Shown here in pieces: positions 13,458 to 39,679 of a stretch of DNA of 64,000 nt. This DNA comes from an uncultured bacterium (GTDB lineage Bacteria; Eisenbacteria; RBG-16-71-46; CAIMUX01; WJJG01), in contig CAZDKK010000002.1 of NCBI GenBank assembly GCA_964506245.1, positions 73,982 to 137,981 on the forward strand, in the 5' to 3' direction. Every line of letters begins with the position of its first letter. Position 1 is the first letter of the stretch. The position numbers were made by a program, and so were the translations under genes. Below the pieces are notes generated by a model. It was not told where the DNA came from. It saw only the letters and a list, made by a program, of their open reading frames with translations, and ran no database searches.

Positions 13458-13461
13458 GGGC

Positions 13462-14103: not shown

Positions 14104-15338
14104 CGCGCCACCAGAGACTCCATCAGCTCGAGATACTGTTTGGCTCGCGACTCGCGCGAGGCGTGGGTGCGCACCCAGGCGAGGCCGTTGGCACCCATTC
14201 GCCGGCACTCGTCCCGGTGATCGGCGAGATGAATGATGGCATCGGCAAGGGCGCGCGGGTTCTCGGGCGGCGCGAAGAGGCCGGCCTGCGCCTGCTCGCA
14301 AACCAGCTCGCGCGCCACGCCGTCGATCGCCAGGAGCGTCGGACGCTCGCAGGCCATGTAGTCGAAGACCTTGTTCGGGTAGACGGTGCGGAAGGTGAGA
14401 TTGTCCTGCAGCACCGCTGCGCCCGCGTCGCAGGCTTGCACGAACGCGGGCATGCACTCCTTCGGTTGGGGTCCCAGGAACTGGATGTTGGCCAGGCCGC
14501 GCCCGCGCGCCAGGGCGGCCAGCCCTGCCCGTTCGGGGCCGTCGCCCACGCAGGCGATCAGGATCTCGGCACGCGACCTGAGCAGCTCGGCCGCCTCGAT
14601 GAGCTGACCGACGGCGTTGGCGCGCCCGTGGGCGCCGCAGTACATGACGACGAAGCGATCGCTCCAATCATGCTCCGCCCGGACGTGGTTCTCGCGCGGC
14701 CCCGGCTGGAAGAGGCGCAGGTCGGCGCCGTTGGGGATGACCGCGATCTTCGCCGGAGGCGCGAGATGCCGGTCGAGGATGTTCTGCTTGAACGCCGGCG
14801 TGAGCGCGGTGATCGCATCGCTGCGCCGGTAGGCCCAGCGCTCGAGCCGGTAGAGCAGGCGCGCGAGCAGGCTGCCGGCGCGCAGGACCCCCGTCGTGAC
14901 CGCGCTCTCGGGCCACAGGTCGCGCACCTCGGCGATCCACGGGGCGCGCCGGCCCGGGAGCCTCGCGGCCAGCCAGCCGGGGACGAAGGCCGTGAGCGGC
15001 GGCGAGGTCGCGAGGACGACGTCGCTGCGCTGCGTGCGGAGCACGGCGGTGGTGCTCGAGAGCGTGAACGCGAGAAATGCCCACATGCGTCCCGCGTACC
15101 CGCGGCTGTAGGAGGAGGGCACGTGGCAGCGCCAGACGGTGACCTCTCCGTCGCGCTCACGGACCACCCAGCGGCGGCGATAGGCTGCGGGGGTCTCGCC
15201 CGATGTGTAGTTCAGTGTGCCGGCGATCACCGTCACGTCGTGTCCACCCTCGGCCCAGATGCGCGCCATCTCGTTGAAGCGCGACCCGCCCGGCATGCCG
15301 GGCACGAGGTAGTGCTGGTGGATGACGAGAATGCGCAT
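14100..15338 (-). CDS. Glycosyltransferase family 4 (WbuB-like)
   Basis: GT-B fold GT4 signatures (MRILVIHQHY..., EVRDLWPES, ...NKVFDYMACERP). 412 aa. Confidence 0.9.
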   Translation of the reverse strand: MRILVIHQHYLVPGMPGGSRFNEMARIWAEGGHDVTVIAGTLNYTSGETPAAYRRRWVVRERDGEVTVWRCHVPSSYSRGYAGRMWAFLAFTLSSTTAVLRTQRSDVVLATSPPLTAFVPGWLAARLPGRRAPWIAEVRDLWPESAVTTGVLRAGSLLARLLYRLERWAYRRSDAITALTPAFKQNILDRHLAPPAKIAVIPNGADLRLFQPGPRENHVRAEHDWSDRFVVMYCGAHGRANAVGQLIEAAELLRSRAEILIACVGDGPERAGLAALARGRGLANIQFLGPQPKECMPAFVQACDAGAAVLQDNLTFRTVYPNKVFDYMACERPTLLAIDGVARELVCEQAQAGLFAPPENPRALADAIIHLADHRDECRRMGANGLAWVRTHASRESRAKQYLELMESLVAR

Positions 15339-15345
15339 CTTCGAG

Positions 15346-17496
15346 CTATCCGCCGCCGGCCGGCCCCGCGGCCGACCCCACGGCCGGCCCCGCGGCCGGT
15401 CCGGATTCCCACTCCCGCGCGAGGCGCTTGGCGTCCTGCGGGCGCAGCGGGAGCAGCGCCCGGACGGCGTCCGCCGGCCCGATCAGCGTGACGAAGCGCG
15501 CCTGCTGGCCCCGCGCAACCAGCTCATACGACCAGGCCGGCACGCGCTCGCCATAGTAGGGTGCCCACCAGCCCCGGGGAACCTGTTCATTGCCGCGCTC
15601 CCAGTTGCCGGCGGGATCGCCCACGGCCCGGCATTCGAGGCGCAGCGGCCCGGCGGGCCCTGGGAGGAGCGTCGCGCCGTGATCGTCCCGCTCCGGCACT
15701 TCGTCCGCCACGAGCCAGTGGAGCCGAAACGTGTGCTCCTCCCCGCCCCCGGCGAGGTCATCGATCACCAGCCAGAGGTCGTCCCGGACGATCACGCAGC
15801 GCGTGTGACGCACCGGGCGATAGCCGTCGTGGTGGCCACGAAAGACCGCCCCCCGCGGTGTGACGCGATGCTCGTCGAGATGCCCGGCCACCCAGTCGTG
15901 CCAGAGGAAACGCTCGCCGCGGCGCATCTGATCGCGGCCGTCCACGGTCACGCTGTTGTGACTGCCCGTCCCGGTGAAGTGCTCCATCCAGGCGCGCCCG
16001 GCGTTGTACAAGTAGGTCCCCGCATCGACCAGGATGTTCCGCCCCTGGAACCAGACATCCAGATGGAGCATGTCGGCCTGGTGCGGGCGGTGCTCGTACG
16101 CCCCGCAACGGATGATGGCGTGCGTGTTGCGTCCATCGAGTCGGTAGTAGCCGCCCTCGCGGAAGGCGACCGGAGCGTTCTCGCCCTCCATGAGTCCCGG
16201 GGCCACGTCCTTCTCAACAGCCACCGGCCCCCCGACCGGACCGCGGGCCCGCACCGGCGGCGCGTTCAGCCAAGCGGCCGCCTCCTCCCACGGCCCCGGG
16301 CCGTAGAGCGGTCCCTCGCCGAGGAGCGCGGCCAGGGCATGGAGCGCCGGGCGGTAGTCCGCGTACGCGCAGGAGGCCAGCGGCAGCAGGAGCGTGCCGT
16401 CGTTCGGCCCGTAGCTGGGCAGCGCCCCTGATGCGCGGTCCTGCAATCCGACGAGGAAGTGCACGAGCCGCCGCGCCGCAGCGACCAGCTCCTCGGGCGG
16501 CTCGACCTCTGCGGTGGCGCACAGCGCCAGAACCCAGGCGTACAACTGCGCGACCAGCCGCGCGTAGTTCGACGAATGCTGCACGTAAGAGCCGTCGGCG
16601 TAGACCTGCCACGCCTCTCGCCCCAGCGACTCCCGGCCGGCACGGCGCCACCGGGCGCTGTCGGGGAGGAACGGGAACTGCACGCCGATGGTGAAGAGCG
16701 CCGTGGCCTCGCTGATGGCATGGTTGTTGCGCAGGCTGTGGACCGCGAACCCGTGAACGGCTTCGATGTGCCGAGCGTGATCGTGGATCGACTCGATCAG
16801 CCGGCTCAGGCGCGCATTCGTCGCGACCGGGGTGTTCAGGAACGCGTGCAGGCCGAACATCCAGGCCAGCAGGCGCAGGCTCACCTCCTGGCCGCAGCGC
16901 CAGTGAGGCCCGGTCTCGGGGGGATTGGCCGCGATCCAGTCCTCGGCCTGGACGAAGAACGCCTCGGGGTAGCGGGCGTCGTCTGTCAGGGCGAAGGCTC
17001 GCGCGAGCAGATAGGTCTGACCGAAGCGCGCGATCTCCCAGATCGCCTTGATGTCGCCGCGCTCCGCGGAGAGCTCGTCGATCTTCATCCAGTGCACGTC
17101 CGCGGGCCAGCGCGTCCCCGTCAGCGGTGACCTGAACCAGTCGGGCGGATGGCCCACATCCCAGGCCCGGTGCGCGAAGAGCACCAGGCGGCCGCGCAGG
17201 ACGTCGTCCGCCCGCGCGACCACATCGTCCGGATCGTCGATGCGATCCCGCAGGGTTCGCGGGTCACCGGGAACGAAGAAACGGCGGGCGCTCGTGTGCA
17301 GGTGGCCGCGCAGCGATTCCCGGGTGCTGTCCCACTCCCACCCGGCGCCGCTGCGCCCGGGCGTCCCCGGCGCGGGCCGCGCGGGCAGCCGGCGGGCGAT
17401 GCGCCCGCTGCGCAGCGCGAGTTCCCATGCGCCCCGGTGGGTCACCCAGCCCGGGCCATACTCGCGCAGGAGTGCCAGCGAATCCGCCCAGCGCAA
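15346..17496 (-). CDS. Heparinase II/III-family (alginate-lyase-like) protein. The start is uncertain: there is no in-frame ATG before residue 249 of the track ORF. TTG 17496 with a GGGGGA RBS is proposed; GTG 17445 is an alternative.
   Basis: Family-typical N-terminal region (RLVLFAHRAWDVGHPPDWFRSPLTGTRWP) and a central/C-terminal Hepar_II_III-like region. The frame upstream of 17513 is the terminal part of the oxidoreductase gene in another frame. Confidence 0.7.
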   Translation of the reverse strand: MRWADSLALLREYGPGWVTHRGAWELALRSGRIARRLPARPAPGTPGRSGAGWEWDSTRESLRGHLHTSARRFFVPGDPRTLRDRIDDPDDVVARADDVLRGRLVLFAHRAWDVGHPPDWFRSPLTGTRWPADVHWMKIDELSAERGDIKAIWEIARFGQTYLLARAFALTDDARYPEAFFVQAEDWIAANPPETGPHWRCGQEVSLRLLAWMFGLHAFLNTPVATNARLSRLIESIHDHARHIEAVHGFAVHSLRNNHAISEATALFTIGVQFPFLPDSARWRRAGRESLGREAWQVYADGSYVQHSSNYARLVAQLYAWVLALCATAEVEPPEELVAAARRLVHFLVGLQDRASGALPSYGPNDGTLLLPLASCAYADYRPALHALAALLGEGPLYGPGPWEEAAAWLNAPPVRARGPVGGPVAVEKDVAPGLMEGENAPVAFREGGYYRLDGRNTHAIIRCGAYEHRPHQADMLHLDVWFQGRNILVDAGTYLYNAGRAWMEHFTGTGSHNSVTVDGRDQMRRGERFLWHDWVAGHLDEHRVTPRGAVFRGHHDGYRPVRHTRCVIVRDDLWLVIDDLAGGGEEHTFRLHWLVADEVPERDDHGATLLPGPAGPLRLECRAVGDPAGNWERGNEQVPRGWWAPYYGERVPAWSYELVARGQQARFVTLIGPADAVRALLPLRPQDAKRLAREWESGPAAGPAVGSAAGPAGGG

Positions 17497-17512
17497 GGCT
17501 GCGGTTCCCCCA

Positions 17513-19729
17513 TCAACGCGCCAGCTCGATGCGTCCGGCGCCCTCGGCCGCCGCGACCGCGGCGAAGGAAGCGAGGGTGACGTTCTCGATCTCCGCGAAC
17601 GGGATGAGCGGATCGCCCCCGGACTGGATCCGCGCGACGAAGGCGCGGAGCTGCTCGCGGTGCCCCTTGCGGGGCCGCAGCAGGCGCGCTGGGCGCAGGC
17701 CGACCCAGCCGCGCCCCGCCAGCTTGCGGAAGTTCTCCAGGCGCAGCACGCGGCCGTCGCTGAAGACCTCGATCGTCTCCTTGGGATAGGCCCGGTGGCC
17801 GTTGGCGAAATAGAGCAGCGTGCCGATCGAGCCATCGGCGAAGGAGAGCGTGACCGCCATCTTGTCGTCGCGCACCTCGGCCCCCGCGACGGGACCGACC
17901 ATCGCCGCTTGTACAGAGACGATCGGGGAACCCGCCAGGAAACGCAGGAGGTCGATCCAGTGACAGCCCTCGCCGATCATCCGTCCGCCGCCGGCGCGGC
18001 GGTTCTGGGGCCATGCGTCGGCCGGCAGCGCCCCGGCATTGACGAGGGCGCTGAGGCACAGCGGCCCCGCGCGCCCGCGCAGCAGGGCCTGGGCACGCGC
18101 CGTCAGGGGCGCGAAGCGGCGGTTGAAGCCGACGTGCAGCATGACGTCGCCTGCCACCTCACGGGCGTGACGGATCTCTTCCAGCTCGTCCTCGGTGAGG
18201 CACAGGGGCTTCTCGACCCACACGTGCTTGCCCGCGCGCAGGGCGGCCGCGGCCAGCGCGGCGTGCGAATCGTGACGCGTGGCGATGATGACCGCGTTGA
18301 TCTCGGGGTCATCCAGGATGTCCTGCGGGTCGCCCGTCGCCCGGGCGAAGCCGAATCGGCGGGCCATGTCCACCGCGGCGACGCCATCCCGCGACGCGAC
18401 GGCGCCCAGCCGGGCCCTGAGCCGCTTCATGGCCGGCCCCAGCGTGCGCTTCGCGAAGTTGCCCGCGCCGATGAGGCCGAGCACCACCTCGCGCTCGGCC
18501 CGCACGCGGCCTGCCGCCGCGCGGGGGATCTCGCACTCGCCCAGGGCCACGCGGACGGGGGTGCGGGCCGGGGCGACGGGCGGGGCTTGCCCCGGGGTCC
18601 CTCGCGGTCCCTCGAGGGCAGGCTCCTCCGGATACGTGAGCAGGGTTGCCAGCGGGGCGTGTCCCGACGTCAGCTCCGTGTACGCGCGCTGGGCTTCGGC
18701 CACGGGAACGCGATTCGCGATCAGCGCGCGCGGGTCGAGCTGCCCGGCGGCGAGGCATTCCAGCACCGCGCGGAGGTTGCGCTGCTCCGTCCAGCGCACG
18801 AGGCCGTAGGGATAGTCCTGCCCGCTCTCGTAGCCTTCGTCGTGACGCCCTGGCCCGTAGGAGCAGGAGACCTGGAACGTGATCTCCTTCTCGTAGAAGT
18901 CGGCGCGGTTCAAGTCGAGGTCGACGACGCCCACGAGGACGATGCGCCCCCGCTGCCGGCACATGCGCGCCGACTGGTGGACGATGCGGTCCTTCTCCGC
19001 CGCCGCGGCGATGAGAACGCCGTCGACACCGTGACCGTGCGTCAGCGCCAGGGCTCGGTCGACCGGATCTGCGCCCGCCGAGAGGTCGACCGCCTCCGCG
19101 CCGTACCCCGCCGCCAGCTCGCAGCGTTCGCGCACGGGATCGATCCCGATGACCCGGCAGCCCGATGCGCGCAGGAGTTGCACGGCGAGCAGGCCGATCA
19201 GCCCCAGGCCCGTCACCGCCGCGGTCTCGCCCAGCGCGGGGCCGAGCAACCGGATGCCCTGCAGTCCGATCGCCCCCAGCACGGTGAAGGCCGCCTGCTC
19301 GTCGGAGACCCCGTCCGGGATCCGCGCGCACAGGTTCTGCGGAACGCAGACGATTTCGGCATGCGGCCCGTTGCTGACGATGCGGTCCCCCGGCGCCAGG
19401 TCGCGCACACCCTCGCCCACGGCGATCACCGTGCCGACGTTGCTGTACCCCAGGGGCAGCGGGTCGTCCAGCCGGGATTGGACCGCCGCGTACGCGGCCA
19501 GCCACCCTTCGCTGCGCGCCTTGTCGAGCACCTGCTGCACGCGCTCGGGCTGCTTGAGCGCCTTGCCGATCAGACTGCTGCGGGCGAAACCGACCAGCAT
19601 CCGCTCGGTGCCGGGCGAGATCAGGCTCAGGCGCGTGCGCGCCAGCACGCAGCCGGGCCGCACCGAGGGCGGCGGCACTTCGGCCACGACGAGGTCCCCG
19701 CTTCTCAGATCTTGCAGGAGCTGCTGCAT
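17513..19729 (-). CDS. Bi-domain oxidoreductase: N-terminal Zn-dependent alcohol dehydrogenase (MDR) fused to C-terminal Gfo/Idh/MocA NAD(P)-binding oxidoreductase
   Basis: MDR domain (GxGxxG LGLIGLLAVQL). Second Rossmann domain (VVLGLIGAGNFAKRTLGP ... EKPL). 738 aa. This is the conserved partner of heparinase II/III + GT4 cassettes in polysaccharide loci. Confidence 0.85.
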   Translation of the reverse strand: MQQLLQDLRSGDLVVAEVPPPSVRPGCVLARTRLSLISPGTERMLVGFARSSLIGKALKQPERVQQVLDKARSEGWLAAYAAVQSRLDDPLPLGYSNVGTVIAVGEGVRDLAPGDRIVSNGPHAEIVCVPQNLCARIPDGVSDEQAAFTVLGAIGLQGIRLLGPALGETAAVTGLGLIGLLAVQLLRASGCRVIGIDPVRERCELAAGYGAEAVDLSAGADPVDRALALTHGHGVDGVLIAAAAEKDRIVHQSARMCRQRGRIVLVGVVDLDLNRADFYEKEITFQVSCSYGPGRHDEGYESGQDYPYGLVRWTEQRNLRAVLECLAAGQLDPRALIANRVPVAEAQRAYTELTSGHAPLATLLTYPEEPALEGPRGTPGQAPPVAPARTPVRVALGECEIPRAAAGRVRAEREVVLGLIGAGNFAKRTLGPAMKRLRARLGAVASRDGVAAVDMARRFGFARATGDPQDILDDPEINAVIIATRHDSHAALAAAALRAGKHVWVEKPLCLTEDELEEIRHAREVAGDVMLHVGFNRRFAPLTARAQALLRGRAGPLCLSALVNAGALPADAWPQNRRAGGGRMIGEGCHWIDLLRFLAGSPIVSVQAAMVGPVAGAEVRDDKMAVTLSFADGSIGTLLYFANGHRAYPKETIEVFSDGRVLRLENFRKLAGRGWVGLRPARLLRPRKGHREQLRAFVARIQSGGDPLIPFAEIENVTLASFAAVAAAEGAGRIELAR

Positions 19730-20704: not shown

Positions 20705-20856
20705 CGTCCCTGACTCCGTGACTGTGCCCGGACTCCCCGGGCCGGACGGACCGAGGCCGCGTCCGGCGCCCAACTCCATCGGTCCGGCGCAAGGAATAAT
20801 CCCGGACTCCGGGCCTGTCAACCGAAAGGCCCGCGGTCCCGTGCGCGTAGCGCCTT

Positions 20857-22413
20857 TTACCACATGAACTTGAGGACTGCCCACCCGACATGGGCCACGG
20901 CGACCAGGCCAAACCACACCCCGCCTGTCAGCCGCAGCTCCCCGCGGCGCGCGGGATCCTCGAGATCCGGCAGGACAGCGAGCAGGATCATGGCCGGCAG
21001 GAACTGACCGAGGTGGCGGGTCTCGAGCGAGGTCGCCGCCACGGCGCCGAGCGCTCCGAGGGCGTAGAGCGTCAGGAAGAGGGGGGCCGCCGCATGGGGC
21101 TCGTGTCGCCGCGCGGCACGCAGCACCTCGCGGATCCCGGTGATGGCGAGCGGCACGATGGCCACCAGATAGATCCCGTGCCACGCCTTGAGGTAGATGT
21201 AATCGACCATGCCCGGCCGCAGTCCCGCCCAGAGCGGGATCGGGTTCACGATCAGGGAGAAGGACCCGAGCAGCAGCCGCACCGGCAGCGGCTGTTGCAC
21301 GATGAGCGCCATGCCGAGCGAGCCCTCGGTCGTGGCTCCCGTGCCGACCCGCTCATAGGTCTCCGCCACCGCGGCCACCGTCCCGGTCACGGACTGCACG
21401 CCCGCCAGCAAGTGGGCGTAGAGGAGCACCAGGCCGACCGCGAGGATCCCCACCGCGAGGAGTCGCCCGAGACCCGGCCGGCAATACCAGAACCACGTCA
21501 CGAGCGCCAGCAGGGCAAAGAGCGCGAAGAGCGGTGCACTCGCCGGCCGCAGGCCCAGGACGACCCACGCGCCCACAGCCACGGTCACGAGCGCCACCAG
21601 GAGGCGGATGGCGCTCATCTTCTGCACCGCCCGCACGAGCGTCCACAGAACCACGGTGTTGACGAGGAGTGTGAAAGCGTCGCGCAGGAAGAGCGCGCCG
21701 AAGAGCCAGAACATCCCGCAGGCCGCGCAGAGGGTGCCGGCGCGGCGCAGACGCGCGTCGATCGAGGCCGCCTGCGCGCGGCCTGAGTGCCCATCGGGCG
21801 GGTTCGGCGCGATTCCATGCTCCACCAGCTCGCGTGCCATCCGCACCGTCAGCGCGCCGACGCATCCCACGGTAAAGGCGTTCAGGAGGACGCCGATCCA
21901 GGGCCCGAAGTTGAGGCCGCAGGCCAGACAGATCCTGTAGAAGGATTGCCAGACTAGGACGGCGTAGGGAGCATTGACGGGGAATCGCTCGCCGAGGCGG
22001 TAGTACGGTGGCTGGCGGAGGATCGCATGGTAGAAGGCATCCGCATCCGACGTGCTCAGCGGCGTCCCGAACGCCCACTGCGAGTAGGCCTGGCACAGCC
22101 CGGCCATGAGCACACACACCGCGTACGTGAGCGCGAACCCGCGCACGACCCAGCGGTCACCGCGGCTGAGGTACCACGTCGCGCCGGTCCCGAGGGCAAG
22201 GAGCACTGCAACCAGGGCGAGCGGGTCGAGGGTGCGGTGGAGGTCGGCCAGCAAGGCGCTGCCCGCCAGAAGGCAGAGCGCGACGGTCGGGTAGCGCACG
22301 AGCGGAGAGAAGAGGCTCACCAGCGCGAGCAACGGGGTGGGCACGGCGCGCCCGCCGGTTGCGCCGCCCGCCGGGCCGCCCAAGGTCGCGGCTGTCGCTG
22401 GTGCTTCGGACAT
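20857..22413 (-). CDS. Polytopic integral membrane protein, Wzy-like O-antigen polymerase/ligase candidate
   Basis: About 12 predicted TM helices and a large loop. Position between wzz and the regulator inside a glycan locus. Start at ATG 22413 (MSEAPATAA...). Confidence 0.5.
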   Translation of the reverse strand: MSEAPATAATLGGPAGGATGGRAVPTPLLALVSLFSPLVRYPTVALCLLAGSALLADLHRTLDPLALVAVLLALGTGATWYLSRGDRWVVRGFALTYAVCVLMAGLCQAYSQWAFGTPLSTSDADAFYHAILRQPPYYRLGERFPVNAPYAVLVWQSFYRICLACGLNFGPWIGVLLNAFTVGCVGALTVRMARELVEHGIAPNPPDGHSGRAQAASIDARLRRAGTLCAACGMFWLFGALFLRDAFTLLVNTVVLWTLVRAVQKMSAIRLLVALVTVAVGAWVVLGLRPASAPLFALFALLALVTWFWYCRPGLGRLLAVGILAVGLVLLYAHLLAGVQSVTGTVAAVAETYERVGTGATTEGSLGMALIVQQPLPVRLLLGSFSLIVNPIPLWAGLRPGMVDYIYLKAWHGIYLVAIVPLAITGIREVLRAARRHEPHAAAPLFLTLYALGALGAVAATSLETRHLGQFLPAMILLAVLPDLEDPARRGELRLTGGVWFGLVAVAHVGWAVLKFMW

Positions 22414-22459
22414 CGCCGGCACAGTAGTGCGCGACCGGAGGCCACGCAAGCGCGGCCCG

Positions 22460-23818
22460 CTAGCCGTTCTGCGGCCCTTCGCCCGCGCGCGGATCCACCC
22501 CCAGCGATCGCATCTTGCGATACAGGTTCGTCCGCAGCAGGCCCAGGCTGCCCGCCGCCCGCTCGACGTCCCCGCCCGCCTCGCGCATCCGGCGCACGAT
22601 CAGCTCCCGTTCGAAGCGCTGGCGCGCCTCGCGCAGCGTCTCGCCATGGGTCTGGCTCCAGATGTCCGCCTGCCCCGCGCGCGGATGGAAGTCGATGTCG
22701 CTCGCCAGGATGCGATCACCCTCGCAGAAGAAGGCGGCGTTCTTGACGACCTTGGCCAGCTCGCGGACGTTGCCCGGGTAGTCGTGCTGCTTGAGCCGCG
22801 CCAGCGCCTCGGGCGACAGCTCCTTGAAGCGGAGGTTGTTCTCGTCCAGGAATCGGCTCAGGAAGTTGGGCGCGATGTCATCGATGTCCTCCAGGCGTTC
22901 GCGCAAGGGGGGCATCTCGATGACGAAGGTCGAGAGCCGGAAGTAGAGGTCCTCCCGGAACTCCCCGCGCGCGATTAGCTCCCCGAGGTTGCGGTGCGTT
23001 GCGAAGATGAGCCGCGCGTCGACCGGCACCTCGCGCGTCTCCCCCACCGGCGTGACGGTCTTCTCCTGCAGCACGCGCAGGATGCGGCTCTGCAGCGGCA
23101 GCGCGAAGTCGCCGATCTCATCGATGAAGAGCGAGCTGCCCTGGGCTGCCTCGAAGTAACCCTGATGATCGCGGTGGGCGCCGGTGAAACTCCCCTTCTT
23201 GTAGCCGAAGAGCTCCGCCTCGATCAGGTTGGGATTGAGCGAGGCGCAGTTGACCTTGTGCAGGGGGCGGGCATAACGCGGCGAGAAGAAGTGCAGGTTG
23301 GCGGCCACCAGCTCCTTGCCCGTCCCGCTCTCGCCCAGGATGAGCACGCTCTCGTTGAGCGCGGCCAGCTTGCGCGTCAGGCCCGTCACACGGCGCATCG
23401 CGCCGCTGTGGCCCAGGAGGGCGTGCCGGGCCTGGGCGGAGCTGCGCGCGTTGTGGATCGAGAAGGCATTGCGCACGGACGTGAGCAATCGCGCCAGAGA
23501 GACGGGTTTCTCCAGGAAGTCCAGCGCACCGTGCTGCAGGCAGGCCAATGTCTTCTGGATGTCGCTCTCGCCGGACATCATGATCGCCTGGGCGTTGGGG
23601 AAGCGCTCGCCCAGGACCTTCACCAGATCCTCACCATCGAGCCCGGCACCGGGGAAGAAGATGTCCAGGATCGCCACAGCCGGGGGCTGCTGCGTTGCGC
23701 GCGCGAGAAAGTCTTCCGGCGCGGCGGAAGTCTCGACCTGGTAGCCTTCGCGCGTGAGGATGGTGCGCAGCCGTTCCAGGATGGCCGCGTCGTCATCGAC
23801 AACCCACAGGGTCTCCAT
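22460..23818 (-). CDS. Sigma54-dependent response regulator (NtrC family): REC + AAA+ sigma54-activation + Fis-type HTH
   Basis: REC (LWVVDDD...D). Walker A GESGTGKE. Sigma54-contact GSFTGA (GAFTGA variant). C-terminal HTH. ATG 23818 is preceded by AGGGAGAG. Confidence 0.9.
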   Translation of the reverse strand: METLWVVDDDAAILERLRTILTREGYQVETSAAPEDFLARATQQPPAVAILDIFFPGAGLDGEDLVKVLGERFPNAQAIMMSGESDIQKTLACLQHGALDFLEKPVSLARLLTSVRNAFSIHNARSSAQARHALLGHSGAMRRVTGLTRKLAALNESVLILGESGTGKELVAANLHFFSPRYARPLHKVNCASLNPNLIEAELFGYKKGSFTGAHRDHQGYFEAAQGSSLFIDEIGDFALPLQSRILRVLQEKTVTPVGETREVPVDARLIFATHRNLGELIARGEFREDLYFRLSTFVIEMPPLRERLEDIDDIAPNFLSRFLDENNLRFKELSPEALARLKQHDYPGNVRELAKVVKNAAFFCEGDRILASDIDFHPRAGQADIWSQTHGETLREARQRFERELIVRRMREAGGDVERAAGSLGLLRTNLYRKMRSLGVDPRAGEGPQNG

Positions 23819-23864: not shown

Positions 23865-24947
23865 TCATGTGGGCAGCTCCGCCCCCAGTTTCCTCAACGT
23901 GATCGCGAAGGCGACGCCCGCGCCCCGGTCCTCGACGGTCACGTTGAGATCCAGATACTCGGAGATCCGCTGCACGAGGAACAAGCCGTATCCGCGGCCC
24001 GCGCCCTTCTCCGAATACCGGATCTTGAAGATCCGGGCAGGTTCGGCGATGTGGCGGCCGGGGGTCACGAATTGGATGTGCACCTCGCCCGGCCGGTCGT
24101 GCAGCTCGACCCGAAACTCTCGTGGATTGGCCTCGATGCCGTTGTTGACGAGGTTCACGATGGCCATGCGCAGCAGCGTGGGCTCGGTCCGCACGCGCAC
24201 CGGCTCCGGGGGCAGCTCGCCCCGGACGTCCAGCGCACCGTGCGTCGCACGTAGTTGGCGGAACGTTTCGGCGAGCACGGGCCCCAGCTCGAGCTCCTCC
24301 CGCGGGCCGAACTCGATGTTCACCAGCTCCTTGAAGACGCTCAGGATCGCTTCCACATCATGGGTCGCCGCGAGGATACTGCCCACCTCCTCCCGGGCCG
24401 CGCTGGCGCTGAGCTCGCGCCCGGTCCCGGTGAGGCTGAGGGTCTCGGCGGAGAGCTTCAGCGGCGTGAGCGGGTTCTTCAGCTCGTGCATCAACAGCCG
24501 GGCCCCGTCTTTCCAGGCCCTCATCCGCTCGTAGTCGCGCAGCTTCTCCTGATCCGCCACCAACAGGTCGATGTACTTCTGCATCAGCACGCGCTCGTTC
24601 TCGTCCGCCACCAGCCTGCGATCCAGCCGCAGCCGTTCCCGGGCGATGCGGGTCAAGTTCTCGAAGATGCGCAGGTAGGCGTCGGACAGGAGCCGCGACA
24701 GGAGCACGCCGACCGGGAGGCTGACGGCGAGCACGGCCAGCACCAACAGCACGTAGCCGACGAGCGCGCGCTGCAGGATGCGCTCGCCCATGATCGCCAC
24801 GTAGGCCTGGTTCTCGGCATGCACCACCCGCTCCAGCGCGTCCCGGAGCGCGTAGATCGAGACGGCGGCAATCACCGCGACCAGCAGGCCAATGTAGACG
24901 CTGAAGAAGATCAGGAACCGCCGCCGGATGGTCATCTGCGCTCCCAT
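23865..24947 (-). CDS. Sensor histidine kinase (2 TM, HisKA + HATPase_c)
   Basis: H-box MHELKNPLTPL. N-box NLVNNGIEA. G-box GRGYGL. Start ATG 24947 or 24935. Confidence 0.85.
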   Translation of the reverse strand: MGAQMTIRRRFLIFFSVYIGLLVAVIAAVSIYALRDALERVVHAENQAYVAIMGERILQRALVGYVLLVLAVLAVSLPVGVLLSRLLSDAYLRIFENLTRIARERLRLDRRLVADENERVLMQKYIDLLVADQEKLRDYERMRAWKDGARLLMHELKNPLTPLKLSAETLSLTGTGRELSASAAREEVGSILAATHDVEAILSVFKELVNIEFGPREELELGPVLAETFRQLRATHGALDVRGELPPEPVRVRTEPTLLRMAIVNLVNNGIEANPREFRVELHDRPGEVHIQFVTPGRHIAEPARIFKIRYSEKGAGRGYGLFLVQRISEYLDLNVTVEDRGAGVAFAITLRKLGAELPT

Positions 24948-25435
24948 GTGCCGTTGCGGTACACCCACTTCTCCTTGACCCGCGGAACGTAGTGGTTCCA
25001 CAGCACGCGCGTGGAGAGGCCCGTGGACTGGCGGAAGGTGGAATCGGGGAGGATGGTGGCCTTGACGAAGACCACAGCCTCGTCGCCTTCCCCGATCTGC
25101 ACACCCGGCAGGGCGAGTTGCGCCGTCCCCATCTGCTTCTGGATCTCTTCCGCGGGGATCGCGACCTCGTTGAGCAGCCACGTCTCGTCATACCTGAGGC
25201 TGTTCACCACGTGCCCGCTGTACGCGCGCCGATCCTCCACGATGACGGAGCAGTAGTAGTCGATCTTGAACTCGAAGCCATGGCGGATGAGATCCTCCGT
25301 GTCCGCCGTGACCGGGGCCGTGAGGTACGCGTCCACCGTGAGCGTCTGACCGTCGACCTGGAGGCCGAGCGGCAGGAAGAAGACCACCGCCGAGATACCG
25401 GCCCCCAGCACCTTGACGACGAACTCGTGGATCAC
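24932..25435 (-). CDS. Hypothetical membrane-anchored/periplasmic protein co-transcribed upstream of the histidine kinase
   Basis: N-terminal TM (VLGAGISAVVFFLPLGL). Overlaps the HK start by 16 nt. 167 aa. Confidence 0.5.
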   Translation of the reverse strand: MIHEFVVKVLGAGISAVVFFLPLGLQVDGQTLTVDAYLTAPVTADTEDLIRHGFEFKIDYYCSVIVEDRRAYSGHVVNSLRYDETWLLNEVAIPAEEIQKQMGTAQLALPGVQIGEGDEAVVFVKATILPDSTFRQSTGLSTRVLWNHYVPRVKEKWVYRNGTWERR

Positions 25436-25483: not shown

Positions 25484-26248
25484 TTAGAAGAACACGCGCA
25501 CGCCCATCTCGGGACGGAACTCGTACGGGAGGACCTCGTCTTTCACCTCGTTGTGATCGTGGATGAAATCCTCCCACTCGCCCTCCAGCTTGAATCCGAC
25601 CGTCAGGCACTTGTCACGGGCGATCCAGAACTCGATGGTCGAGCCCATGCCGGCTCCGCCGATCGACTCGTCCCGGCCCTTGTCGGCGGCATCGTAGTCA
25701 GGGAGGATCCACAGCCCGCGCAGGAAGGCTGTGCCGCTGATGAAGTTCAACAGCACCGGGGTACCCCAGGTGAGCTTGAGGGCGAGTGCCTGGCCGTGGG
25801 CGTAGTACGGGTCACCGTTGTCCTTGTGCAGCAATCCCTCTCGCCGGAAGTACTCGAAGCCGGCGGAGACCCCCAGCCGGTACGCGCGGCGACTGTCGAT
25901 GTACTTCTGTTCCCAGGGCGGAGTCCACCCGGGAAACCCGAACATGTACCCGACCTCTATCGTCCACTGGTTCGCCGCTGCGGTGAGCACCGATGTCGTC
26001 CAGCCGGTGCCCCACCCCAACGTCTCCCCGGTCGCGTAGGGATTCGCATCCACGTTCTCCATGATGATCTTCTCGATCTTGACCTCGAGCGAATCGAGGC
26101 GGGCGCGGAGCTCGGCGCATTCGGCCCCTGCGTCCGATGGACCCTGCGCTCGGGACAGACCCGGCTGCCCAGATGGGTCCTGCGCCTGAGACGGCGCGAT
26201 GGCCAGCGCCAGCAAGACCACGGCGCCGATGGAGATGAGCGTTCGCAT
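25484..26248 (-). CDS. Putative outer-membrane beta-barrel protein with N-terminal coiled-coil segment
   Basis: Signal peptide MRTLISIGAVVLLALAIAPSQAQ. Strong GAGGAGG RBS before ATG 26248. Alternating amphipathic beta-strands. C-terminal ...MGVRVFF. Confidence 0.6.
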   Translation of the reverse strand: MRTLISIGAVVLLALAIAPSQAQDPSGQPGLSRAQGPSDAGAECAELRARLDSLEVKIEKIIMENVDANPYATGETLGWGTGWTTSVLTAAANQWTIEVGYMFGFPGWTPPWEQKYIDSRRAYRLGVSAGFEYFRREGLLHKDNGDPYYAHGQALALKLTWGTPVLLNFISGTAFLRGLWILPDYDAADKGRDESIGGAGMGSTIEFWIARDKCLTVGFKLEGEWEDFIHDHNEVKDEVLPYEFRPEMGVRVFF

Positions 26249-26387
26249 AAGACCTCCTCGCTGGATTTCGTCGGGTTCCTTATCCCACCGTCCGGCCGGA
26301 CTGTCCACGGGAAGGCTGGCGCGCATCGCTGGGCCGCGCCTTGCACCGGCGGCCGGCGTGCCGCTTCTTCCCACCGCGCGTCTTCTC

Positions 26388-26403
26388 GCAGAGCCCATGC
26401 CAG
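26388..26403 (-). promoter_or_regulatory. Candidate sigma54 (-24/-12) promoter upstream of the OM beta-barrel gene
   Basis: Minus-strand CTGGCATGggctCTGCg (GG-N10-GC spacing correct; consensus TGGCACG-N4-TTGCW). About 125 nt upstream of ATG 26248. Confidence 0.5.
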
Positions 26404-26478
26404 ACCGAAGGAGTCATGTAACCGCCTACGTTTGGTGTAGTTATCGGCGCATTCGCCATGGCCTGCATCCCACGCCCG

Positions 26479-26493
26479 TATCCGGGGCGATTC
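26479..26493. promoter_or_regulatory. Perfect palindrome GATTCgcgcgGAATC (candidate enhancer/UAS for the NtrC-type regulator), ~80 bp upstream of the 26388-26403 sigma54 element
   Basis: Inverted repeat GATTC-N5-GAATC followed by AGAACGGATCAG. A near-identical copy is at 27826-27840. Confidence 0.45.
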
Positions 26494-26501
26494 GCGCGGA
26501 A

Positions 26502-27668
26502 TCAGAACGGATCAGCGGCATGCGGGTCGCCGCCGGATGCTTCGTCGCCCGCCTGCGCCCAGATCCAGTCCATCACCTCCGCGATGCCCGCCTCCGTCTC
26601 GGGGTGGGCCGCGTTGGCGATGACCGAGAAGGCGAGATTCCTCTGCGCGCACACCACCGTCGCGCACAGGAACGTGCCCGCACTGCCGAAGTGAACCGAG
26701 AACGGCTGGCCGTCCCGGGCCGAGATGCTCCAACCCAACGCGTAGTCACCGACGGGACTGTGCAACCTCTGGATCGTGGCCGCGGGGACGATGCCATTCG
26801 TCCCGCGCAGGCCGTTCAAGTGCTGTCGCAGGAAGACGGCGTAGTCATCCAGCCTGATGCTGATGTCCCCTGCCGGAGCGATGACAGCGGGCAACACGTA
26901 GGCATCCCAGGGATCGTGGGGAATCAGCGTGCTCCCGTCCCAGGCGTGACCCCAGGGCTCGTCTGGGCCCGCGCGGCCCGGCCACCCAAAGGTGCATGAG
27001 GCCCCCAGCGGCGACAGGACCAGCTCCTGGACCAGGTCTTCCCAGGGTGATCCCATGACGCGTTCGGCCATGGCCGCGGCAATCGCGTACCCGGCGTTCG
27101 AATAGCAGTATTCACCCGGCGCGACCGCGGGAGCTTGCGCAAGCAGCCACGCCGTGAAGACATAGCGCTGCTGGATCGGCGGGCCGGAGAGCTCCGGCAG
27201 CGCGGCGAACTCCTCGATTTCGGTGAAGGGCTGGATGCCGGCCCGGTGGCTGAGCAGCTGCTCGAGCGTGGCCTCGCGATAGGGCTCTTGCACACTGCCG
27301 GCGAGCTCCGGGAACACGTCCAGAATCCGAGTGTTCCACGCAAGGCTGTCCCGCTCGACCAGCACGCCGATCAGGGTCGCCGTGACGGCCTTGGTGTTCG
27401 ACCCGATGTGCCAGAGATCCTCCCGCTGCAGCGCGTCGCTCGCTCCAAGCTTGCGGACGCCGGCGACCGCCTCATCCACGTCATCTCCGCGAACCACGAC
27501 GGCCGTCATCCCGGGGATCCCGTGGTCCGCGATCGCGCTCTCCAGGATTGCCCGAAGGTCCACCTCGGGAGGCGCCGGCTTGGTCGTCTCCTCACTGCAG
27601 GAGGCGAGCCCGATGCTGGCGGCCAGCAGCAGCGTCCCTCCGATCGCCCGATCTCCAATCCCTCTCAT
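26502..27668 (-). CDS. Lipoprotein serine hydrolase, class-C beta-lactamase/PBP-like family (ATG 27668; the track uses GTG 27686)
   Basis: S-x-x-K active-site motif HIGSNTKAVTA. Lipobox LAASIGLASC. GGAGAGGAGG RBS before ATG 27668. Confidence 0.8.
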   Translation of the reverse strand: MRGIGDRAIGGTLLLAASIGLASCSEETTKPAPPEVDLRAILESAIADHGIPGMTAVVVRGDDVDEAVAGVRKLGASDALQREDLWHIGSNTKAVTATLIGVLVERDSLAWNTRILDVFPELAGSVQEPYREATLEQLLSHRAGIQPFTEIEEFAALPELSGPPIQQRYVFTAWLLAQAPAVAPGEYCYSNAGYAIAAAMAERVMGSPWEDLVQELVLSPLGASCTFGWPGRAGPDEPWGHAWDGSTLIPHDPWDAYVLPAVIAPAGDISIRLDDYAVFLRQHLNGLRGTNGIVPAATIQRLHSPVGDYALGWSISARDGQPFSVHFGSAGTFLCATVVCAQRNLAFSVIANAAHPETEAGIAEVMDWIWAQAGDEASGGDPHAADPF

Positions 27669-27724
27669 CTCAGACCTCCTCTCCACGAACCCTCAATGGT
27701 GAAACGTGTCTGCGCCGGGGACGC

Positions 27725-27740
27725 GCAGGGTCCGTGCCAG
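27725..27740 (-). promoter_or_regulatory. Candidate sigma54 (-24/-12) promoter upstream of the beta-lactamase-like gene
   Basis: Minus-strand cTGGCACGgaccCTGCg. Exact TGGCACG, correct 10-nt GG..GC spacing. About 45 nt 5'UTR to ATG 27668. Confidence 0.6.
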
Positions 27741-27825
27741 CGAGTGCGAATCACCTAACTCCTAGCAGGGGTGCCTATTCCGGGCGGGGCGCGTGGGCGT
27801 CGGAGGCAGGAGTCGTATCGTCTGT

Positions 27826-27840
27826 GATTCTCGCGGAATC
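27826..27840. promoter_or_regulatory. Palindrome GATTCtcgcgGAATC (second copy of the candidate UAS), ~90 bp upstream of the 27725-27740 sigma54 element
   Basis: GATTC-N5-GAATC followed by AGATAGGATTCAG. Same arrangement as 26479-26493. Confidence 0.45.
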
Positions 27841-27896
27841 AGATAGGATTCAGGGGTTGACCGGACCTTCGGGCGGGGTGACGCGCGGGCCGACCC

Positions 27897-28520
27897 TCAC
27901 GACCACTCCAGGAAATTCCTCAGCAGCCGCGTCCCAAAGCGGTGGCTCTTCTCGGGGTGGAACTGCGTGCCCATCACATTGCCGTGCTGCAGCGCCGCGG
28001 TGAACGCGTATCCGTGGGTCGTGCGTGCAAGCACGTCGGTCTCATCGTGGCAGACGACGTGGTAGGAGTGGACGAAGTAGAAGGCGGTGTCCTCGTCCTC
28101 GTCGAGGCCGCGGAAGAGCGAGTCCGCCCGGACAATCTCCACGGTGTTCCACCCGATGTGAGGCACGCGCGCGTCGCGGGCCTCGGGCGGGAAGTGGAAC
28201 CGCACGGTCTGGCCATCCACCCAGCCTAGGCCCGGCACTTCCGCTTCCTCGCTGCCCCGCGTCATGAGCTGCATGCCAAGGCAGATGCCCAGCACGGGGA
28301 TTCGCTCTTGGCGGGCCTTGCGATCGAGCACGTCGCGCAGCCCCAGCCGGCCGATGTTGTCCATGCCCTCGCCAAAGGCACCCACACCAGGCAGGATGAG
28401 CCGCTCGGCCCCCGCGATCACTTCCCGGTCGGACGTGATCACGCTCTCGGCGCCGATTCGCCTCAGCATGTTCCGGATCGACCCGAGATTCCCCAGCCCG
28501 TAGTCGACGATGACGAGCAT
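27897..28520 (-). CDS. HisH-like glutamine amidotransferase (imidazole glycerol phosphate synthase subunit H paralog; WbuY-type in glycan loci)
   Basis: MLVIVDYGLGNLGS..., catalytic GICLGMQ, and the H..E triad region. Confidence 0.9.
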   Translation of the reverse strand: MLVIVDYGLGNLGSIRNMLRRIGAESVITSDREVIAGAERLILPGVGAFGEGMDNIGRLGLRDVLDRKARQERIPVLGICLGMQLMTRGSEEAEVPGLGWVDGQTVRFHFPPEARDARVPHIGWNTVEIVRADSLFRGLDEDEDTAFYFVHSYHVVCHDETDVLARTTHGYAFTAALQHGNVMGTQFHPEKSHRFGTRLLRNFLEWS

Positions 28521-33580: not shown

Positions 33581-34459
33581 ATGAACAAGTCTCCCTTTAT
33601 CGTACTGAGCCTCATCGTCGTCGCCCTGGTCGCTGTCGTCATCGTGCTGGGCAACAAGTACAAGGAGACGACGGCTCGCTATGCCGAGACAAAGCAGGCT
33701 GAGGAGACCGTGAGGAACCAGTTCAACTCCGCGCTCGTTTCGCTCGCCGAGATCCAGGAGAGCCTCGAGTCCGTTGTGCCCGAGGGGGAGCGCGTGGTGC
33801 GTCTGGTGCGCGACGTCGAGCCCGGTACCGAGGAAGCGCAGACGCAGCGCGATCACATGCTCGGCACGATCTCCAACCTGAAGGAGACCATCGATCTCAG
33901 CAAGCGCCGGATTCGCGAGCTGGAGGAAAGCCTGCAGAAGAGCCACACCGAGATCAGCGGTCTGAAGCGGCTGATCGATAGCCTCAAGCGATCCGTCGCT
34001 GAGAAAGAGGCCTTGATCGCGAGGCTAACGGCCAAGGTCGACTCGCTCAACGTCACCGTGGTCGGTCTGAAGGAGGACGTCCGCCGAGGAGAAGAGACGA
34101 TCAGCCAGCAGGCAACCGTGATCGAGGCGAAGAGCCAGGAGCTGGCCACGGTCTTCTACGCGATCGGAACCAAGAAGGAGCTCAAGGCGAAGGGCATCAT
34201 CACGGAGAAGGGCGGTGTCATCGGCGTGGGGAAGTCCACGGTTCTGTCGGGCGCCTTCAGGGCAGGCGATTTCACGGCGCTGGACACCGATCGATTCAAG
34301 GAGATCCCGATCCCTGGTCGCGAGCCGCAGGTGCTGAGCGCGCAGAGCGCGCCGAGCTACGAGATCCAGATCACTCCCGAGGGAGCCAAGCTGGTGATCA
34401 AGGACGCGCGGGAATTCCGCAAGGTGAAGTATCTGGTCGTCATGGTGAAGGAGGACTAG
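33581..34459 (+). CDS. Membrane-anchored coiled-coil protein, hypothetical (lower GC than its neighbours)
   Basis: N-terminal TM (IVLSLIVVALVAVVIVL). ~170 aa heptad-rich coiled coil. Globular C-terminus. GGAGGG RBS. Confidence 0.7.
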   Translation: MNKSPFIVLSLIVVALVAVVIVLGNKYKETTARYAETKQAEETVRNQFNSALVSLAEIQESLESVVPEGERVVRLVRDVEPGTEEAQTQRDHMLGTISNLKETIDLSKRRIRELEESLQKSHTEISGLKRLIDSLKRSVAEKEALIARLTAKVDSLNVTVVGLKEDVRRGEETISQQATVIEAKSQELATVFYAIGTKKELKAKGIITEKGGVIGVGKSTVLSGAFRAGDFTALDTDRFKEIPIPGREPQVLSAQSAPSYEIQITPEGAKLVIKDAREFRKVKYLVVMVKED

Positions 34460-37790: not shown

Positions 37791-38528
37791 TCACGCGTTG
37801 CAGGCCGTACCAGCGGCCGGTGGCGGCGGCCAGGGGGTCCACAGAATGCAGAGCGGGGACATGGCAAGGACCGTCAGACCGGCGCGCCTCACCACCTCCC
37901 GCAGCTCTCCGGATCGGAACATGTGGCAGCGGTGCGTGGCGCCGTCCCAGTTCTCCGGCGTCAGATCCCCCGTGTCTGTGACCTTGCGGTTGCCTTCCGG
38001 TGGCACGGTGAGTACTCCCGACAAGAACCGGTGAGCCGTGCCCCAGAGCGACATGACGCTGGCAAGGACGTGCCCTTCCCTCTTGCAGACCCGCACGCAT
38101 TCCCGTAAGGCTACCGGCGCCTGCTCGAAGATGTAGCTGAGAGGTCCACCGTAGCAGACAACGGCGTCAAAGGATTCGGACTCCAGGCAGTTCATATCGC
38201 AGACATCCAGCTGCAGGCGATCCTCTACGGCACTATCGAAAGCCAACTGACTTGCATACTTCCGATGGAGTCCCAATTGGACCTGCGATAGGTCTGCTGC
38301 CACGATGCGGCACCCCATCTCCGCCAGTACCTGTGTAAATCGGCCCGGACCAGCGCCGACGTCCAAGACCCGTGATCCCGGCTTCACGAATACCCGCAGC
38401 TAATGTGTGTGAATGAAGAGGCTAACGGCGTCCACAGGACTGCGGGAGAATCGTTCCCATTCATGCTCGCCGTATTCGTCGTAGCGAGCAGCCACCCAGT
38501 CTGGATTGTAGGTGCTGGCCTGGTCCAT
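37791..38528 (-). pseudogene. Class I SAM-dependent methyltransferase interrupted by a single in-frame amber codon (TAG at 38400-38402)
   Basis: Track ORFs 38400..38771 (...MDQASTYNPDWVAARYDEYGEHEWERFSRSPVDAVSLFIHTH*) and 37791..38387 (V(GTG)KPGSRVLDVGAGPGRF...) are in the same frame. Only TAG + 4 codons (LRVF) separate them, and together they form a complete methyltransferase N-terminus + motif I. Confidence 0.65.
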
Positions 38529-38670
38529 ATTCCCTCTGTCCAACGAAAGCATCAGCGGTGGCGCGAAGCGGCATCCGCTGAATGTAGTGTTCGGCGTCTT
38601 CATGATCCATTGCACAATGCGGCACCAGGACTCCAGCAATGCTCCTACTAGAATTGAGCCTATTCCACTG

Positions 38671-39057
38671 TCAGCTGTCTGTTGTTGTGTCTCCTGCGCC
38701 GGGGAGCATTCGTTGGCGCACGCTGTCGCGCCCAATGACAGTGATGCGCCCCGCGAAGCTGATGTCGGCATGCTCGATCAACGCCAGCAGTGTAGAGGCC
38801 GGTTCCTCCGGATCCATGGGTGCGAAGCGAAGTAGAACGATACCCGGTTCTGCAGCGCTTGACGTTCGAAAGACCAGCGCACCGAAATCGCGGTCAAACG
38901 TGATGAGAGTGCGGTTTTGCTCGATGCCCAATCGAAGCACGTCGGCATCGGCTATGCCTGGGGATGATTCAGCAATTGACAGGACATCGTGACCGGCTGC
39001 TCGTAGGGCATGGAGGGATGCTCTTGGGATGTTCTCGTCGGCCAAGAAGCGCATCAC
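38671..39057 (-). CDS. DUF5615-type PIN-like putative toxin
   Basis: MRFLADENIPRA...HDV...TLITFDRDF signature. 4-bp overlap with the upstream DUF433 gene. Confidence 0.7.
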   Translation of the reverse strand: MMRFLADENIPRASLHALRAAGHDVLSIAESSPGIADADVLRLGIEQNRTLITFDRDFGALVFRTSSAAEPGIVLLRFAPMDPEEPASTLLALIEHADISFAGRITVIGRDSVRQRMLPGAGDTTTDS

Positions 39058-39293
39058 GTCCCCGTACGCCGAGTCGGGTAGGTGGATTCTTCACCTAGGA
39101 TCTGGGCGGCATATGCGTACACTGCCCTCAACGCATCCTGAGTGACCTTGGGGTAGTTCTCTCGAATCTGCTCCTCCGACCACCCTTCGGCTAGCAGCCC
39201 CAGGATGAAGTCCACTGATAGGCGCGTGCCTTTGATAACGGGCTTTCCCACAAGGATTTGCGAATCTATCATGATGTGGTTATGCCAGTTCAT
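39054..39293 (-). CDS. DUF433-domain putative antitoxin (start ATG 39293; the track ORF starts further upstream at 39494)
   Basis: IMIDSQILVGKPVIKGTRLSVDFILGLLAEGWSEEQIRENYP = DUF433 consensus. Confidence 0.75.
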   Translation of the reverse strand: MNWHNHIMIDSQILVGKPVIKGTRLSVDFILGLLAEGWSEEQIRENYPKVTQDALRAVYAYAAQILGEESTYPTRRTGT

Positions 39294-39679
39294 CGGATCA
39301 CTTCCTTCCTCCTGAAATCCCCAGTCCTCATTCAGTATACAGCATGTTCTTGGCCGAAGATGCCATCTCCTTTTTTCGCGCAGGGGGCAGTCGTCCAGCG
39401 CGGATTCCCGGTGTTGGGCATGGCCCGGTAGGTATCTGGAAGTGATCGAAAACCCCAGAGATTCAGCATCGATGCCTCGTGTCCTCTGCCACAACCTCGT
39501 CTGTGCCGGTTTCTGACCAACAGCCTGGATCGCGTCGGTTGGGGGAGGCTGATCAAAGGATAGGAATCACCCGCTGAGCGTGCGGATTCTGCTCGGACTG
39601 AAGCCGCCCGAGGTACGAGGGTAGGTGTGAGAGATAGCTTGACGTAGCTGCGAACGTCCAATCCAAACTTGTTGGACGG

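Follow-up and report, generated by a model that had tools for sequence, protein, structure and literature searches.

Genes and promoters at the locus

The subject of this analysis is a regulatory cassette in a 64-kb stretch of DNA from an uncultured bacterium (the window, on which all coordinates and motif counts are based unless another contig is named). On its minus strand the window encodes, in this order, a predicted outer-membrane beta-barrel, a small membrane-anchored protein, a histidine kinase and an NtrC-class sigma-54 activator. One candidate sigma-54 promoter, P2, precedes this cassette, while a second, P1, precedes the upstream gene of a serine hydrolase. Our interpretation is that the activator probably acts at both promoters through paired upstream sites. 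Genes were delineated via GC3-guided open reading frame (ORF) calls and assigned using family scans.

The first cassette gene (25484..26248, minus strand) encodes a 254-residue protein with a signal peptide and a C-terminal FF. Its AlphaFold2 model contains eight strands and matches the barrels of OmpA, OprF and OmpX, the best Foldseek match being the OmpA transmembrane domain (1bxw, E 9e-5), as indicative of an eight-stranded OmpA/OmpX-like beta-barrel. The N-terminal segment is strongly conserved (DSLEVK...ATGETL.WG.GW), and the protein is rare, with 10 relatives in 5.8 billion clusters. The second gene (24932..25435, minus strand) encodes a 167-residue protein with an N-terminal hydrophobic anchor, whose length is almost invariant across its family (52 representatives in 1.84 billion). 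A confident Ig/Fn3-like beta-sandwich is predicted for it. Its structural neighbours are generic Ig/Fn3 folds only, and the attempt to assign a specific function from the fold was therefore dropped. Neither protein belongs to a Pfam or NCBIfam family according to our scans.

The third gene encodes a histidine kinase of 356 residues (23865..24935, minus strand; HATPase_c E 2e-10, HisKA E 8e-5) and overlaps the gene for the 167-residue protein by 4 bp. Two transmembrane segments of the kinase enclose a loop of about 27 residues, and the family scan detected no recognisable sensor domain. The fourth gene (22460..23818, minus strand) encodes a response regulator of 452 residues made up of a REC domain (PF00072, 4.6e-20), an AAA+ domain (PF00158, 1.7e-60) and a Fis-type helix-turn-helix domain (PF02954, 8.9e-7). 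With its GSFTGA and GESGTGKE motifs and the invariant aspartate in ILDIFF, it has the features of an NtrC-class (group I) sigma-54 activator. Its closest solved relatives include Aquifex NtrC4 (3dzd) and Brucella NtrX (5m7n). Assignments to NtrC, PrsR, ZraR, AtoC and similar equivalogs were considered and rejected, as all scores were under the respective NCBIfam cut-offs.

Cassette genes are separated by -4 to 48 bp, and the terminator scan called no terminator-like site inside the cassette. A multi-pass membrane protein of up to 530 residues (20857..22449, minus strand) begins 10 bp after the activator gene and is probably co-transcribed with the cassette. It matched no Pfam or other family, so that the label wzy, under which it had previously been listed, stays unverified. 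The hydrolase gene upstream of the cassette (26502..27668, minus strand) encodes a beta-lactamase/PBP-family serine hydrolase of 388 residues with a lipoprotein signal (LASC; PF00144 E 3.9e-41), which scores under all class C and AmpH cut-offs.

P1 (TGGCACGgaccCTGC, 27739..27725, minus strand) and P2 (TGGCATGggctCTGC, 26402..26388, minus strand) were identified both by reading the sequence and by pattern searches, in line with an earlier note on this DNA that had reported two -24/-12 elements with correct spacing. When compared with TGGCAC-N5-TTGCW, GG and GC are exactly 10 nt apart in both promoters, and the sole deviation from the consensus is a C replacing the first T of TTGC. Both promoters are intergenic and point to the downstream gene, P1 lying 57 nt and P2 140 nt before the start codon. 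Transcription is predicted to start near 27713 from P1 and near 26376 from P2, the latter leaving a leader of about 128 nt. The promoters had been described as flanking the two-component system; instead, they are arranged in tandem before it on one strand, and what they flank is the beta-lactamase-like gene. Nor are their gaps the only sizeable ones in the array: a third gap of about 150 bp (20704-20857) precedes a wzz-like gene.

The pattern TGGCAYG-N5-TGC occurs three times in the window versus 0.45 expected. The third perfect match (TGGCATGgttgTTGC, 16716..16730, plus strand) is treated as a chance occurrence because it lies antisense within a heparinase-like ORF and has no upstream sites. 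According to its title, PMC4591121 reports that intragenic sigma-54 sites are widespread in E. coli.

Palindromes upstream of P1 and P2

Upstream of each promoter we found, again by sequence read and pattern search, a perfect GATTC-N5-GAATC palindrome: GATTCcgcgaGAATC (27840..27826, minus strand) for P1 and GATTCgcgcgGAATC (26503..26489, minus strand) for P2. The earlier note was right about their existence and misplaced the second by 10 nt (26479-26493 instead of 26489-26503). At its true position this palindrome extends into the stop codon with which the beta-lactamase-like gene ends (TGA, 26504..26502). Two exact palindromes in the window compare with 0.02 expected, and none of 100 shuffled sequences reached two. 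Each of the two copies begins exactly 101 bp from TGG, and the alignment from site to promoter is free of gaps.

Both palindromes are located just past a stop codon, the P2 copy overlapping that of the hydrolase and the P1 copy following that of a hisH-like gene by 57 bp. They could thus be RNA or DNA structural elements, such as terminators or REP-like repeats, which lie near a sigma-54-like sequence by chance. We consider this highly improbable. The stem measures only 5 bp, is AT-rich and lacks a T tract, and a terminator role was discarded given that the terminator scan called neither copy. Further, the palindrome has only two copies in 64 kb, and what other lineages conserve is a direct 21-bp GATAC repeat whose distance to the promoter is constant, irrespective of the preceding gene.

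Conservation across lineages

The cassette locus was compared between the window, contigs L008, L013, L015, L020 and L022, and a group comprising L010, L011, L012, L017 and L021. The L015 contig was labelled Eisenbacteria by its depositor, and L020 and L022 represent AT-rich lineages. The order barrel, 167-residue protein, kinase and activator is kept in six lineages with unrelated flanks. The seventh, L020, has kept only the genes for the barrel and the 167-residue protein, plus a remnant of the kinase gene. Located after the gene for the 167-residue protein, this remnant is a 112-residue ORF (L020 10501..10887) whose match to the kinase is limited to the N-terminal transmembrane region of the latter. 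The tandem sites and sigma-54 promoter of L020 are intact, yet an activator gene is absent within 10 kb.

Promoter and upstream sites were present in all seven recovered lineages (7/7). This answers, in favour of the finding, a test put forward in the earlier note, namely whether orthologous loci would lack the combination of promoter and palindrome. Two GATAC half-sites 21 bp apart are found in every lineage, located 98-101 bp upstream of TGG, with the exception of L020 and L022, where the pair is found at -77/-56 (77 bp). Across the roughly 205 kb formed by the window and non-redundant loci, GAWWC-N16-GATAY occurs at -98 to -101 from TGG at all promoters of that set except the one in L020. 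In the same sequence, searched on both strands, the strict sigma-54 pattern occurs only before the cassette, P1 and the match at 16716 excepted. No sequence conservation is seen in the stretch separating sites from promoter, which nevertheless consistently measures 72-75 bp. A spacer of free sequence and fixed length is the footprint of function rather than of recent duplication.

A scan of metagenomes with the alignment of the 167-residue protein returned only contig L008. This contig is about 65% identical to the window genome and has many genes in common with the window. Missing from it are the polysaccharide block described below and, at the corresponding position, the gene for the 530-residue membrane protein. 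Scanning a genome collection for GATTC-N5-GAATC-N82-90-TGGCAYGG-N4-TGC yielded five single hits in unrelated taxa, none with cassette genes. One of these hits, in a Rhodospirillales metagenome-assembled genome (L001 199..314, minus strand), is a sigma-54 promoter (TGGCACGGgcctTGC) with an NtrC-family activator gene on one side and a glmS-like ORF (MCGIVGL...) on the other. We do not regard this as the same system, with the palindrome lying inside the activator coding region and the cassette being absent. Overall, the cassette seems to be limited to a few uncultured lineages, perhaps of Eisenbacteria/FCB type in view of the label of L015, and the families of the 254-residue barrel and the 167-residue Ig-like protein appear, as judged from gene order and promoter content, to be tied to a sigma-54 two-component circuit.

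Some further features of the promoter regions were observed in this comparison. A TTAnnnnAyTC element (27748..27758 and 26411..26421, minus strand; -19..-9 from TGG) lies exactly 8 nt 5' of TGG in P1, P2 and L013 and is unclear in L008; it may represent an extended promoter or an auxiliary site. The 5' leader behind P2 contains a highly conserved block, CGTGGACAsTCC..CCGGACGGTGgGATAAGGA..CCGnC (window 26249..26330, minus strand; L008 9925..10000; L013 2505..2582). A riboswitch or other structured leader was considered for this block and dropped: Rfam gave no match, the fold z-score was -0.21 and the three sequences contained one compensatory pair. A membrane-anchored coiled-coil protein of 292 residues is encoded in the window and in L008 (window 33581..34459, plus strand; L008 8770..9648, minus strand; 64% identical). 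In L008 its gene lies next to the cassette in divergent orientation, and the activator sites fall within the intergenic region common to both; in the window the gene is about 7 kb away.

Organization of the putative activator sites

The palindrome itself does not seem to be the conserved unit. An anchored alignment resolves four alternating half-sites, G..TC - N6 - GATAC - N5 - G..TC - N6 - GATAC, and the information profile identifies the two GATAC halves as the most informative positions. Based on this sequence comparison, we favour as the likely unit a 16-bp imperfect inverted repeat, GWWTC-N6-GATAC (GAWWC), present twice with 21 bp between centres. As 21 bp equal two helical turns, both sites would face the same side of the helix. 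In case of P1, site A (GAATC-ctatct-GATTC, 27836..27851, minus strand, centre ca. -130) is a perfect 16-bp inverted repeat and site B reads GAATC-acagac-GATAC (27815..27830, minus strand, centre ca. -109). For P2, site A, (T)GATC-cgttct-GATTC (26499..26514, minus strand), has a degenerate left half and overlaps the final codons and stop of the hydrolase gene, while site B reads GAATC-gccccg-GATAC (26478..26493, minus strand).

Since the half-sites in the window read GAATC/GATTC/GAATC/GATAC, the N5 palindrome arises where the right half of site A meets site B with its left half. The sequence put forward as binding unit in the earlier note is thus present, but it is the junction of two N6 sites and is absent in L020 and L022. 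Likewise, the AGA..GGAT(T/C)CAG seen beside each palindrome exists, but corresponds to a fourth half-site (GAATC or GATCC).

Three observations favour the N6 register. L022 carries a perfect GTATC-N6-GATAC and L020 a GTATC-N6-GATAT, with nothing at the N5 position in either case. In the L010 group, the 21-bp repeat unit is GTTTCG-N5-GATAC, again in the N6 register. Lastly, no half-site is better conserved than the outermost one (GATAC at -79/-80), which ranks among the two best-conserved elements. The same observations make it unlikely that a single activator dimer binds the central GATTC-N5-GAATC, with the outer half-sites being auxiliary or irrelevant. That arrangement would fit the perfect N5 palindrome in both window copies, and by symmetry the junction also reaches a complementarity of 4-5 out of 5 positions in most of the GC-rich lineages. 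However, the inner left half is reduced to G..TC in the information profile.

We used a 41-bp position weight matrix (PWM) built from the other lineages only, with window sequences left out. Over 128,000 window positions, the P1 element ranked first with 28.9 bits and the P2 element second with 14.0 bits. No further regulon members rose above background in this window scan. An integration host factor site was sought in the spacer, where the best match had at least 3 mismatches and no position was common to the sequences. The favoured arrangement of two N6 sites has the make-up of an enhancer, being a tandem inverted-repeat pair at a fixed promoter distance in seven lineages.

A putative autoregulated sigma-54 circuit

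Taken together, we consider it likely, with a probability of roughly 0.8, that P1 and P2 are genuine sigma-54-dependent promoters, each with a two-repeat enhancer on which the cassette activator would act, P2 serving self-regulation and P1 having been recruited. From the elements and their statistics, the domain content and the conservation of motif and spacing, we infer regulator binding, sigma-54 dependence, the extent of the operon and the signal sensed. In the proposed mechanism, the kinase would phosphorylate the NtrC-class regulator encoded at 22460..23818, and two regulator dimers would then occupy the tandem sites on the same helix face. The active AAA+ oligomer would loop to the sigma-54 holoenzyme on the -24/-12 element and open the complex. 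Transcription from P2 would cover the genes for the barrel, the 167-residue protein, the kinase and the activator, and probably that of the next membrane protein, resulting in positive autoregulation. The comparison of lineages strongly supports this core of the earlier note, in which sigma-54 promoters with enhancer-binding-protein sites were linked to autoregulation by the downstream NtrC-type system.

P1 would repeat the architecture of P2 and would have been taken up in this lineage to serve the gene of the beta-lactamase/PBP-family lipoprotein. Among the recovered lineages, tblastn found the hydrolase gene only in L006 and L007, which are identical to the window. Because gene and promoter are confined to this lineage, P1 likely represents a lineage-specific recruitment to the regulon. 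We ruled out a recent duplication of P1 from P2, given that the spacers between sites and promoter are only 33% identical (p = 0.095). The regulon outlined previously is retained in part: the beta-barrel gene (via P2) and the lipoprotein gene (via P1) fit, and an extension to the wzz and glycosyltransferase genes is unsupported.

A number of observations weigh against this interpretation. The -12 element is CTGC where the consensus is TTGC, and rpoN was not among the ORFs covered by the family scans of the 64-kb window. P2 site A has a degenerate left half, and the P2 score of 14.0 bits falls within the maxima of shuffled sequence (up to 19.7), so that support for the P2 sites comes from position and conservation. 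In the window, the symmetry of four alternating half-sites alone cannot separate the N6 from the N5 register. Finally, the L020 sites without an activator indicate that the link between activator and sites is not one-to-one in every genome.

This last point would also suit a scheme in which the sites are bound by a regulator other than that of the cassette, be it a further enhancer-binding protein or a repressor or activator of unrelated type, given that sites and promoter persist in L020 while no activator gene lies within 10 kb. We regard such a scheme as improbable, even more so than binding of a single dimer to the N5 palindrome. In six of seven lineages the sites directly precede the operon that codes for the highly conserved activator, whose orthologues are 56-80% identical. 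Its recognition helix (LRxNLYRK) is conserved in the lineages sharing GATAC, and helix conservation thus co-varies with the half-site. Further, the activator is the only DNA-binding protein conserved across the neighbourhoods compared.

What the circuit responds to can be addressed more tentatively. Because the kinase has no sensor domain, the barrel and the Ig-like protein are candidate co-sensors. It is conceivable, if rather speculative, that the cassette forms an undescribed envelope-spanning sensor in which both proteins, the barrel with its highly conserved and presumably periplasmic N-terminal segment, sense on behalf of a kinase nearly devoid of a periplasmic domain and report to sigma-54 via GTATC-N6-GATAC, which would be a new recognition sequence. 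Such a sensor may report the state of the outer membrane or of surface polysaccharide.

Surrounding polysaccharide locus

The setting of the cassette in a polysaccharide locus, proposed from the start, fits the minus-strand gene array. Upstream of P1 lies the gene of a HisH-like amidotransferase (27897..28520). Beyond the 530-residue membrane protein follow genes for a Wzz-like protein (19739..~20704; Wzz 27.2 bits vs a cut-off of 25.5), an alcohol dehydrogenase (ADH)/GFO oxidoreductase fusion (17513..19729), a heparinase II/III-like protein (15346..17835), a GT4 protein (14100..15338), a Bac_transf protein (13462..~14102; E 9e-63) and a PglD-like acetyltransferase (12819..13487), all on the minus strand. 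The fusion is a single ORF of 738 residues joining zinc-type alcohol dehydrogenase and GFO/IDH/MocA oxidoreductase domains. Of the components expected for a Wzx/Wzy-type locus, the array thus offers an initiating sugar transferase (Bac_transf), a glycosyltransferase (GT4) and a Wzz-type protein. No flippase was identified in the locus by the window family scans, and the presumed Wzy has no family match.

The gap in front of the wzz-like gene contains TTGACA-N17-TATTCC (20793..20821, minus strand) around a GC hairpin, CCCGGAgtCCGGG. The same TTGACA/hairpin/TATTCC block is found upstream of the wzz-like gene of L008 (13795..13951), though the preceding gene differs there. A sigma-70-type promoter is one possibility, a combination of terminator and promoter another. 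With a separate gap in front of it and a block conserved in L008, the wzz-like gene is probably under its own control, which leaves a regulon reaching the wzz and glycosyltransferase genes unsupported.

Farther away, a stretch of low GC content (38000..40830; 0.58 vs ca. 0.68) carries a transposase/integrase ORF (39683..40828; rve_3, HTH_21) and a 26-bp palindrome (GAATCACCCGCTGAGCGTGCGGATTC, 39564..39589), and is probably an insertion sequence. It is followed by the genes of a large TPR-CHAT protein (41050..44055, minus strand) and a BTAD/AAA/TPR STAND-type regulator (47704..51150, plus strand). In L008, a counterpart of this regulator is encoded close to the cassette.

Comparison with known systems

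A close parallel in layout is the NtrB/NtrC-glnAp2 system (glnALG) of enteric bacteria, which combines a REC-AAA+-Fis-type activator with a sigma-54 promoter, two strong dimer sites more than 100 bp upstream and a positively autoregulated operon encoding the regulators themselves, as proposed for the cassette. NtrC sites at glnAp2 are centred at -140 and -108 (PMC5159524), compared with approximately -130 and -109 here. Several features set the two systems apart. The activator scores 348.6 bits against the NtrC model TIGR01818, well under its cut-off of 558.6, and the half-site GATAC as well as the spacing (21 bp here, 32 bp there) differ from those of NtrC. In contrast to NtrB, the kinase is membrane-bound and lacks a PAS domain, and the genes for the barrel and the Ig-like protein take the place of nitrogen-assimilation genes.

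ZraR (1ojl) is likewise among the closest solved relatives of the activator (E 1.5e-68), although the score for the ZraR equivalog is only 273 vs 760 bits. In the ZraS/ZraR-zraP system, which serves the envelope-stress response of E. coli and Salmonella, a membrane kinase and a sigma-54 activator are autoregulated and drive the gene of an envelope protein, and ZraR binds inverted repeats upstream of sigma-54 promoters, both of which resemble what is proposed for the cassette. ZraS, however, has a periplasmic metal-sensing domain, in place of which the cassette kinase carries just a loop of about 27 residues. Further, zraP is divergently oriented, whereas the accessory genes of the cassette are unrelated to ZraP and predicted to be co-transcribed.

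PrsK/PrsR (TIGR02915), the two-component system associated with PEP-CTERM/exosortase polysaccharide loci, shares with our system the location of an NtrC-type activator in an exopolysaccharide-type locus, and PEP_resp_reg was the second-best NCBIfam match of the activator. Its score of 342.1 bits is nevertheless under the cut-off of 502.6, and the kinase (356 residues) is far smaller than PrsK. No exosortase or PEP-CTERM protein turned up among the window ORFs scanned. The cassette also occurs in genomes without a polysaccharide block (L008, L010, L017).

On a more general level, Francke et al. 2011 linked sigma-54 statistically across genomes to exopolysaccharide, lipoprotein, peptidoglycan and outer-membrane genes (PMC3162934). 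The putative targets described here, namely an outer-membrane barrel, a PBP-family lipoprotein and a membrane protein in a polysaccharide locus, follow the same cell-exterior theme. Neither the cassette nor its binding motif is described in that study, as far as checked.

For this uncultured lineage, our analysis provides a testable regulatory model consisting of motif, spacing, promoter and a regulon of at least two transcription units. Its value lies in annotation and in a clean case of motif-plus-spacing conservation around a free spacer, and not in a new principle. Interest would rise somewhat if the barrel and Ig-like proteins do form an envelope-spanning sensor. Set against the systems above, the NtrC-type mechanism itself is textbook; what is new is the cassette family, the putative recognition sequence and its fixed spacing.

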